Positions 43,448-43,524 of a stretch of 64,000 bases of DNA are shown here, piece after piece; the stretch's first letter is position 1, and each line of letters opens with the position of its first letter. The stretch lies in the NCBI RefSeq assembly GCF_056712565.1, contig NZ_CM160072.1. The stretch is one strand, 5' to 3'. The notes beneath the pieces are model-generated. The model saw only the letters and a list, made by a program, of their open reading frames with translations, ran no database searches and was not told where the DNA came from. Made by a program: the position numbers and the translations under genes.

Positions 43448-43524
43448 GGCGCGAGCTGCCTGTACGGCAGTTTACAAGTCCGTATCCGGAGATACCTCTA
43501 TTTCTAAGCTGCTCAAGGCAGTTT
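43448..43524 (-). repeat. Two degenerate CRISPR-repeat-like elements in antisense orientation in the cas2-3/csy1 intergenic region
   Basis: 43448-43475 matches the repeat reverse complement at 20 of 28 positions (AGCTGCCTGTACGGCAGT core); 43501-43524 matches TTTCTAAGCTGC plus GGCAGT with a 2 bp gap. Confidence 0.55.

Follow-up and report, generated by a model that had tools for sequence, protein, structure and literature searches.

Why should a type I-F CRISPR-Cas locus carry two degenerate, inverted copies of its own repeat between cas2-3 and csy1? The question arises in a 64,000-nucleotide stretch of contig NZ_CM160072.1 (NCBI RefSeq assembly GCF_056712565.1), here called the window, which is an Escherichia coli chromosome of the B2/extraintestinal pathogenic (ExPEC) type with a type I-F locus. 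A sequence-only reading had noticed the pair directly after the cas2-3 stop and suggested that it might be a relic mini-array, a structured element affecting csy expression, or the mark of a recombination scar. We consider it likely that the pair is, or very recently was, the gene for a CRISPR RNA (crRNA)-like regulatory guide RNA of the CreA/CreR type.

Read on the minus strand from 43526 to 43448, the element consists of a repeat-like unit (PsiR1), a spacer-like unit (PsiS), and a second repeat-like unit (PsiR2). The two repeat-like copies start 53 bp apart with 25 nt between them, and since both true arrays of the locus lie on the plus strand, the pair is inverted in fact as well as in appearance. 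PsiR2 (43448-43475, minus strand) reads GTAAACTGCCGTACAGGCAG|CTCGCGCC and is identical to the array repeat GTTCACTGCCGTACAGGCAGCTTAGAAA at 20/28 bases over this frame, and at 20/22 over the first 22. It contains an exact copy of the 15-nt Cas6f stem-loop CTGCCGTACAGGCAG (minus strand, 43456-43470), the sole minus-strand copy in the window, where shuffled sequences would be expected to yield 0. The Rfam model CRISPR-DR4 also matches here (43454-43470, minus strand; 21.8 bits, E=0.04), under its gathering score. The 25-nt guide-like PsiS (43476-43500, minus strand; TAGAGGTATCTCCGGATACGGACTT) is shorter than the 32-nt spacers of the arrays. PsiR1 (43501-43526, minus strand; CCAAACTGCCTTGAGCAGCTTAGAAA) carries an exact copy of the 12-mer GCAGCTTAGAAA from the 3' end of the repeat (minus strand, 43501-43512), again the sole minus-strand copy in the window, and with it the intact 8-nt 5' handle CTTAGAAA; its stem-loop has a 2-nt deletion. 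Neither the exact stem-loop nor the 12-mer is expected by chance.

The way in which the copies have degenerated is informative. Cas6f cleaves I-F repeats directly after the stem, so that each crRNA begins with an 8-nt 5' handle left by the upstream repeat and ends in the 20-nt hairpin of the downstream one. The intact parts of the pair are only those pieces that a mature I-F crRNA keeps, the handle CTTAGAAA and the hairpin CTGCCGTACAGGCAG, while the halves that would be discarded are degenerate, an asymmetry that fits the minus-strand orientation only. With a Cas6f cut predicted after GGCAG, the first 20 nt of PsiR2 (GTAAACTGCCGTACAGGCAG) would form the 3' hairpin end of a mature RNA of 8 + 25 + 20 = 53 nt. 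Such asymmetry is a hallmark of 'divergently degenerated' creA genes (PMC10097628, PMC10120712, bioRxiv 10.1101/2024.01.05.574328). The element is not a canonical CRISPR array: its repeats are degenerate, its one spacer has 25 nt and is conserved between species, and neither phages nor plasmids gave a match. It has the makings of a regulatory mini-array: two repeat-like units surround a spacer-like sequence within the cas locus and outside the arrays, and the crRNA-forming parts (CTTAGAAA and GTAAACTGCCGTACAGGCAG, kept in 11 haplotypes) are retained as the remainder degenerates divergently.

What might such a guide recognize? We found a predicted DNA target on the same strand as the mini-array, 105 bp away (43605-43631, minus strand), with a protospacer-adjacent motif (PAM) CC at 43631-43630, a protospacer running downward from 43629, and a matched seed at 43617-43629 (TAGAG-A-TATCT-T-C). 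Over this site (CC|TAGAGATATCTTC, 43631-43617), guide and target agree at positions 1-5, 7-11, and 13 and differ at 6 and 12. Pairing in Cascade-type complexes skips each sixth base of the guide, which is flipped out. Even with 1 mismatch allowed, the pattern CCTAGAGNTATCTNC occurs nowhere else in the 64-kb window (0.02 matches expected). A 6/12 mismatch pattern has likewise been reported for a tested mini-array of Pseudomonas aeruginosa (PMC10120712). The guide therefore has what is looked for in a regulatory mini-array, a partial, seed-anchored match to a nearby PAM-flanked site, the location of that site in a promoter being a prediction. Searched with BLAST, 50,697 phage and 72,556 plasmid records contained no match to the intergenic region, guide included, and handle plus seed, sought in viral contigs, gave six matches, all AT-rich, at chance level, and hairpinless. 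Nor does the element look like a viral RNA anti-CRISPR or Cracr mimic, which would be encoded by a phage or plasmid, as the locus is chromosomal and no phage, plasmid, or viral-contig counterpart was found.

We compared the locus in 31 further complete E. coli genomes, E. whittamii, an Escherichia cryptic-clade strain, E. ruysiae, a divergent E. coli, and metagenomes, and found 11 distinct Escherichia haplotypes of the mini-array. All 11 keep the handle and the PsiR2 hairpin, and in all 11, a CC-flanked target in the corresponding place pairs with the guide at positions 1-5, 7-11, and 13. Variation in the guide is limited to position 6 (G/A) and position 5 (G->T, jointly with the target). At position 6, the guide has G or A and the target A, G, or T, in five combinations; at position 12, the target has T, G, or A, never matching the guide. 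Position 5 is G in both guide and target in 9/11 haplotypes and T in both in the remaining 2 (the 503025 type and E. ruysiae). PsiR2 is invariant save for one change in STEC299, and the 8 nt beyond the cut site vary. The STEC299 change (GGCAG->GGTAG on the PsiR2 minus strand; contig L054, 285-299) turns one stem pair into G-U and does not break it; this strain has a cas3 lacking its N-terminus and intact csy genes. PsiR1 has a 5-bp CTGCC/GGCAG stem with a 3-nt loop in the other lineages. A metagenome scan for PsiR2 returned mostly the 503025 type, one new Escherichia haplotype (L043), and unrelated arrays. One metagenomic contig of 2.8 kb (L046, Ga0134126_10152845, ~1107-1190, reverse strand) has, in a non-cas context, an inverted I-F repeat-like pair around a 19-nt spacer; a PAM-flanked target was looked for in the contig and not found.

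The mini-array also appears to have a promoter of its own. A stringent scan of 43350-43850 gave a single sigma-70 match, a predicted minus-strand promoter at 43529-43557 with -35 TTGCCA (43557-43552), a 17-bp spacer, and -10 TAACAT (43534-43529). It points into PsiR1 and ends 3 bp before it, placing the predicted transcription start at the 5' edge of PsiR1. In a position weight matrix (PWM) scan of 9 diverged Escherichia versions of the intergenic region, the same aligned position was top-ranked on the minus strand in 9/9, at 8.0-11.8 bits. Across lineages, the hexamers are TTGCCA, TTGCAG, TTGCAA, or TTGAAA and, after 17 bp, TAACAT or TAATAT, while the sequence between the hexamers varies. Thus anatomy, selective conservation, a unique PAM-flanked match, co-variation, and a conserved promoter are all seen in the sequence and its comparison.

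Promoters on the other strand are less distinct. Two candidate plus-strand -10 elements, both TAATAT, lie at 43572-43577, where other lineages have an extended -10 (TGnTAATAT), and at 43605-43610, which aligns with TTGGTT-16/18-TAGATT of other lineages and would put the -10 and start site under the target. These candidates score 7.6-8.8 bits with the PWM; their position is conserved in the lineages that have a 27-codon open reading frame (ORF) between the target and csy1, and they are weaker in the window type. They could be promoters for this small ORF and the csy operon. Independent work on E. coli LF82 noted the 330-bp gap, obtained no reverse-transcription PCR product from cas2/3 to csy1, and detected csy1 expression (Almendros et al., PMC3506596). 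With csy1 expressed in LF82 in the absence of cas2/3 read-through, a promoter for the csy operon must sit in the intergenic region. The suggestion that the repeat-like pair bears on csy expression is right in outline, its PAM-flanked target overlapping candidate promoters for the small ORF and csy1.

By analogy with tested systems, the element would be transcribed and processed, and its RNA would direct binding and repression, as follows. Transcription of the minus strand would start from its own promoter (43557-43529), and Cas6f would cut after the stem of each repeat-like copy, releasing an RNA of ~53 nt with an 8-nt handle CUUAGAAA, a 25-nt guide, and a 20-nt hairpin end. The Csy complex (Csy1-3 and Cas6f) would load this RNA and bind the CC-flanked site at 43617-43631 through ~11 seed base pairs, the short guide and partial match favoring binding without cleavage by Cas3. 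A complex bound at the intergenic plus-strand promoter, or directly past it, would repress the small ORF and csy1-cas6f. Because csy1 follows the small ORF with no predicted terminator between them, the same repression would autoregulate the effector genes in a CreR-like manner. The outcome would be negative autoregulation of the effector genes, possibly together with silencing of a small toxic product.

Several observations weigh against this reading. Complementarity amounts to 11-13 bp, and the strength of binding is assumed by analogy. The co-variation is one double change, possibly a single event common to two haplotypes. In the window lineage, the PsiR1 stem has only 4 bp. The stringent scan of 43350-43850 found no plus-strand promoter, and the candidates are weak consensus matches. 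RNA folding, which had been proposed as a check, gave a structure for the predicted precursor no better than shuffles (z = -0.96); this minimum free energy fold pairs the two repeat copies with each other, is uninformative on the Cas6f hairpins, and was set aside as evidence for them. Lastly, neither Cas6f nor Csy2 is intact in the window strain, so that there is no working element in it now.

This last point calls for a description of the locus itself, which is chromosomal, flanked by clpA and infA, and ordered as array, cas1f, cas2-3, intergenic region, csy1, csy2, csy3, cas6f, tRNA-Ser, and second array. The two arrays (38731-39058 and 48119-48507, plus strand) share the repeat GTTCACTGCCGTACAGGCAGCTTAGAAA. 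On the plus strand, cas2-3 (Cas3f; 40211-43444; NCBIfam TIGR02562, 1208 bits) is intact and its stop codon lies 3 nt ahead of PsiR2; the 329-bp intergenic region follows, then an intact csy1 (43774-45081, recognized by NCBIfam), a csy2 pseudogene (45078-46001) with a stop at 45291-45293 (codon 72), an intact csy3 (46012-47013), and a cas6f pseudogene (47024-47578) with a stop at 47390-47392 (codon 123; CAG->TAG relative to ATCC 11775). The tRNA-Ser gene (47689-47776) is on the minus strand. Elsewhere in the window, and without relation to the CRISPR locus, a Gln/Pro-rich repeat protein would be encoded by tandem repeats of 39/54/93 bp (56833-58118) in which CAG/CCG codons abound.

The lesions are of different reach. 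RefSeq flags an 'internal stop' in csy2 of ATCC 11775 and UTI89, which is the same stop as in the window, and the cas6f stop is common only to strains such as HS13-1 and APEC E18055, whose csy1-cas6f stretch is identical to that of the window. The 601 bp around the mini-array are 100% identical in ATCC 11775, UTI89, S88, and NU14. Premature stops in csy2 and cas6f imply that the I-F interference complex of the window strain is non-functional and that a guide RNA would be neither processed nor loaded there. The mini-array in the window is thus most likely a recently disabled remnant, an orphaned part of a formerly working circuit. Relatives with an intact circuit include NGF1/NC101, 8178, and 95-3322, and the csy genes are likewise intact in LF82, B7A, and ATCC 43896.

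How do other explanations fare against these data? The first would have the element act on the opposite strand, a CUGCC/GGCAG hairpin on the cas2-3 mRNA serving as a terminator, a stabilizer, or a Cas6f site that uncouples cas2-3 from csy, with the guide features incidental. The stem is palindromic, so that the same 5-bp stem can still form in the sense RNA, as the sequence-only reading held, and the hairpin stands 3 nt past the cas3 stop. Further support comes from a metagenomic relative with a 75% identical Csy1 (L012, 4567-4644), in which a 78-bp cas3-csy1 gap contains a PsiR2-like hairpin only, without a second repeat, and both sides of the stem have changed in a compensatory manner (CTGCT TGTAC AGCAG). 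This suggests that a PsiR2-like hairpin alone may be under selection. The lack of detectable cas2/3-to-csy1 read-through in LF82 (PMC3506596) would also fit uncoupling. However, the hairpin has no T-run after it, the prediction gave no terminator-like site, and the explanation does not account for an exact 5' handle 53 bp off, a minus-strand promoter, or a PAM-flanked, co-varying target. A hairpin on the sense mRNA is not supported as the main function, given that handle, promoter, seed, and PAM are all features of the minus strand and that reverse-transcription PCR detected no cas2/3-to-csy1 transcript in LF82 (PMC3506596). We judge this explanation improbable as an account of the element, although the hairpin may have a secondary role that co-exists with the regulatory guide.

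A second explanation is that the pair is a neutral relic, a scrap of inverted array left to decay after the adaptation and interference modules were rearranged, with no present or recent function. The repeats are degenerate, one with a 2-nt deletion, the system in the window is decaying, and some mini-arrays, for example in type III loci, were deemed non-functional by Shmakov et al. (PMC10120712). The junction is a hotspot of indels and recombination, in line with the suggestion of a recombination scar or variable junction: the ~330-bp region is confined to Escherichia, is absent from relatives, and ranks among the most diverged stretches between lineages. Between the two main E. coli I-F lineages, the intergenic region is ~75% identical, compared with 93-98% for most cas genes, and the most diverged stretch comprises this region together with the 5' half of csy1. 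In that half (window 43898-44347), DNA identity falls to 63-75%, against 93-98% for the rest of the cas genes, and Csy1 proteins of the two lineages are 84% identical compared with 96-98% for other Cas proteins, a pattern suggestive of a recombination block or of diversifying selection acting on Cas8f. A relic would nevertheless be expected to decay uniformly, yet handle, hairpin, and seed are invariant while the flanking repeat halves vary and the intergenic region is ~75% identical. Selective degeneration of this kind, a conserved dedicated promoter, a unique PAM-flanked match, and a paired change at position 5 of spacer and target are left unexplained by neutral decay, and we regard the relic interpretation as quite improbable. 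An ordinary immune mini-array, whose lone spacer would target a mobile element rather than its own locus, is the least plausible explanation, since in spite of a repeat-spacer-repeat layout and a promoter of its own, it has a spacer of 25 nt rather than 32 that is conserved across Escherichia species instead of variable, no match in the 50,697 phage and 72,556 plasmid records and AT-rich chance matches alone in viral contigs, and its only PAM-flanked match in its own locus.

The regulatory guide that we favor has well-described counterparts. Regulatory mini-arrays 3' of cas3, transcribed opposite to cas3 and targeting the region upstream of cas8f/csy1, are known from a catalogue of I-F1 loci and were validated in P. 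aeruginosa YL84 (Shmakov et al. 2023, PMC10120712). Work on other I-F systems, experimental tests included, has described an element between cas3 and csy1 with opposite transcription, a short guide, 6/12 mismatches, and Cascade-dependent repression with no cleavage (PMC10120712; PMC10097628; bioRxiv 10.64898/2026.06.02.729485; 10.1101/2024.01.05.574328). The E. coli element shares with the I-F1 mini-arrays (PMC10120712) its slot just 3' of cas3, opposite transcription, two repeat-like units with a shortened spacer, a seed match with mismatches 6 and 12 to a CC-flanked site upstream of csy1, and the presence of the intergenic region in only a subset of otherwise near-identical systems; it differs in its Escherichia host, in the unrelated sequence of guide and target, and in a guide of 25 nt. 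It also resembles CreR of types I-B, I-E, and V-A (bioRxiv 10.1101/2023.03.10.532045), a degenerate mini-CRISPR through which the effector is directed to the promoter of its own cas genes and represses it. That work reported CreR for those three types, and in the E. coli locus the small ORF between target and csy1 makes a pure CreR reading uncertain. The text of PMC10120712 treats E. coli solely for its I-E locus, and no explicit account of the E. coli I-F element emerged from our literature search, although it may be listed in bulk in the supplementary tables of that paper.

The layout is also that of the CreTA and CrePA modules that occupy the cas3-csy1 gap in Acinetobacter sp. WCHA45 (CreTA; PMC10097628), P. 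aeruginosa (CreTA1/2; bioRxiv 10.64898/2026.06.02.729485), and A. baylyi (CrePA; bioRxiv 10.1101/2024.01.05.574328). As in these, creA sits between cas3 and csy1 and diverges from a mini-ORF led by a Shine-Dalgarno (SD) sequence just 3' of the CreA target, and the intergenic region is of like size (330-400 bp). Cas3 is dispensable for repression by CreTA and CrePA, and consistent with that, the csy genes are intact in CRE10 and SCPM, in which cas3 or cas1 is lost. The candidate product differs, being a 27-residue hydrophobic peptide as opposed to an RNA toxin (a 5- or 11-codon mini-ORF plus hairpin) or a 103-aa KilAC protein.

We observed the intergenic region in 238/5426 complete E. coli genomes, always chromosomal and always between cas3f and csy1, with the window lineage accounting for 200 of the 238. 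It is missing in a system with a 90%-identical Csy1, where cas3 and csy1 overlap, and in Klebsiella, Citrobacter, Intestinirhabdus, Cronobacter, and Pseudocitrobacter, which have 17-bp gaps instead. A comparable pattern of presence and absence has been described for Acinetobacter (PMC10097628) and P. aeruginosa (bioRxiv 10.64898/2026.06.02.729485). Independent support comes from Pluralibacter gergoviae, in which the same slot holds an inverted mini-array with an unrelated 21-nt guide, which matches at 18/21 positions a CC-flanked site near 5883 (L017) within its own cas3-csy1 region. That gap (L017, 5414-6000) is 587 bp long and also harbors a minus-strand ccdA antitoxin-like gene (5552-5791); the cas3-csy1 slot seems to occur here in a cargo-gene version. 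In E. coli SZQ1 (H165, NZ_CP173996.1, 3033944-3035473), a deletion fuses cas3f to csy3, and the intergenic region, csy1, and csy2 are lost.

In all lineages other than that of the window, the PAM is directly followed by AGGTGA-N7-ATG and a 27-codon ORF that ends 42 nt before the csy1 start codon, with the consensus M[I/M/L]I[T/A][T/A]GV[V/A]PF[A/T]VCVVVLKP[G/C]WATEIFQ. Third codon positions account for 8 of its 13 variable sites (binomial p = 0.035), 6 of the 13 are synonymous, and the replacements are mostly conservative, a codon pattern that favors selection at the peptide level. The peptide is strongly hydrophobic, with a grand average of hydropathy (GRAVY) of 1.41 overall and 2.56 for residues 1-17. 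Searches of NCBIfam, plasmids, and phages gave no homolog (best phage match E = 9), and the exact 27-aa sequences were not found in the protein collection searched.

In the window, a degenerate form of the 27-codon hydrophobic ORF (MIITTGVVPFAVCVVVLKPGWATEIFQ) remains. An SD-like AGGAGAG (43629-43635, plus strand), which contains the PAM complement, precedes a 37-aa ORF at 43645-43758 (plus strand). The ATG region has been replaced, leaving at best a GTG at 43645, and a 1-nt insertion (GTCAGTTGT vs GTC-GTTGT) cuts the hydrophobic stretch short and fuses it to another frame to give the 37-aa product.

Other readings of this sequence were tried and set aside. An alternative reading frame as the main product would require 12/13 substitutions to be non-synonymous, radical ones in the 5' half, and its start codon is not conserved; its 3' part is too invariant for a decision. 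A rare-codon toxin, with AUA at codon 3 in one lineage, is not conserved. A structured 5' untranslated region or CreT-like hairpin 3' of the target gave a long hairpin in RNAalifold with no compensatory changes and with single-sequence energies worse than shuffles (z = +1.2, +1.3). In NGF1-type strains, TAG->TGG at 43613-43615 joins two frames into a 104-aa ORF across the whole intergenic region (window 43441-43758), mini-array included. Some annotations list this ORF (P0003, P0001), which occurs on 864 contigs, as a hypothetical protein. It almost certainly results from faulty gene calling, and its annotation should give way to that of an RNA gene.

Does the small ORF encode a toxin? Since creA diverges from an SD-led mini-ORF just 3' of the target, as in CreTA and CrePA, the ORF is by analogy a candidate CRISPR-repressed toxin. 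In Escherichia lineages other than that of the window, a conserved SD-ATG 27-codon hydrophobic ORF with coding-type substitutions stands at the position of the CreTA toxin gene, as a candidate toxin only. We tentatively raise the possibility, which we hold to be less than even, that Escherichia I-F loci carry an undescribed CRISPR-repressed toxin-antitoxin module in which the 27-residue peptide MIITTGVVPFAVCVVVLKPGWATEIFQ, the first csy cistron, is a toxin silenced by the CreA-guided Csy complex. The 1-nt insertion and loss of the ATG in the B2 lineage would then have removed addiction and allowed csy1, csy2, csy3, and cas6f to decay repeatedly, through nonsense and frameshift mutations, in strains of the uropathogenic (UPEC) and avian pathogenic (APEC) E. 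coli type.

The state of the csy genes, sampled individually in 22 further genomes, bears on this possibility. With an intact 27-codon ORF, csy1-cas6f are intact in 13/13 genomes, including two without cas3 or cas1 (CRE10 and SCPM). With the frameshifted ORF of the window type, we counted five independent inactivating csy lesions: a csy2 stop in the UTI89 clade, the cas6f stop of the window, a csy1 stop in FDAARGOS_1284 and 82.0311, and a csy2 frameshift and a csy3 stop in Z1323CEC0015. E. ruysiae has a premature stop in the small ORF and an insertion sequence (IS) element in csy1. The association between ORF state and csy integrity has a Fisher p = 0.015 on raw, non-independent genomes and ~0.10 after collapse to lineages. 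The pattern would be expected of an addiction module, but it is statistically weak and suggestive only. Within the window lineage itself, loss of effectors is tolerated, with csy2 and cas6f pseudogenes in the window and csy1, csy2, and csy3 lesions in sister strains that have the same frameshifted ORF. The frameshifted ORF and the repeated inactivation of csy genes imply that no addiction operates there.

A regulatory guide of this kind adds a model organism, E. coli, to those whose type I-F systems carry crRNA-like guides for self-regulation. The locus also offers a natural allele series for the function and decay of such a circuit, intact in enterotoxigenic E. coli (ETEC) and commensal strains, altered in the small ORF of one lineage, and with broken csy genes in other strains. 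If the small ORF were indeed a CRISPR-repressed toxin, its product would add a class of peptides to the CreT RNA and CreP protein toxins, and could explain why I-F effector genes have eroded in ExPEC lineages and not in others. Such a module would also be relevant to phage therapy and to CRISPR-based antimicrobials against E. coli.

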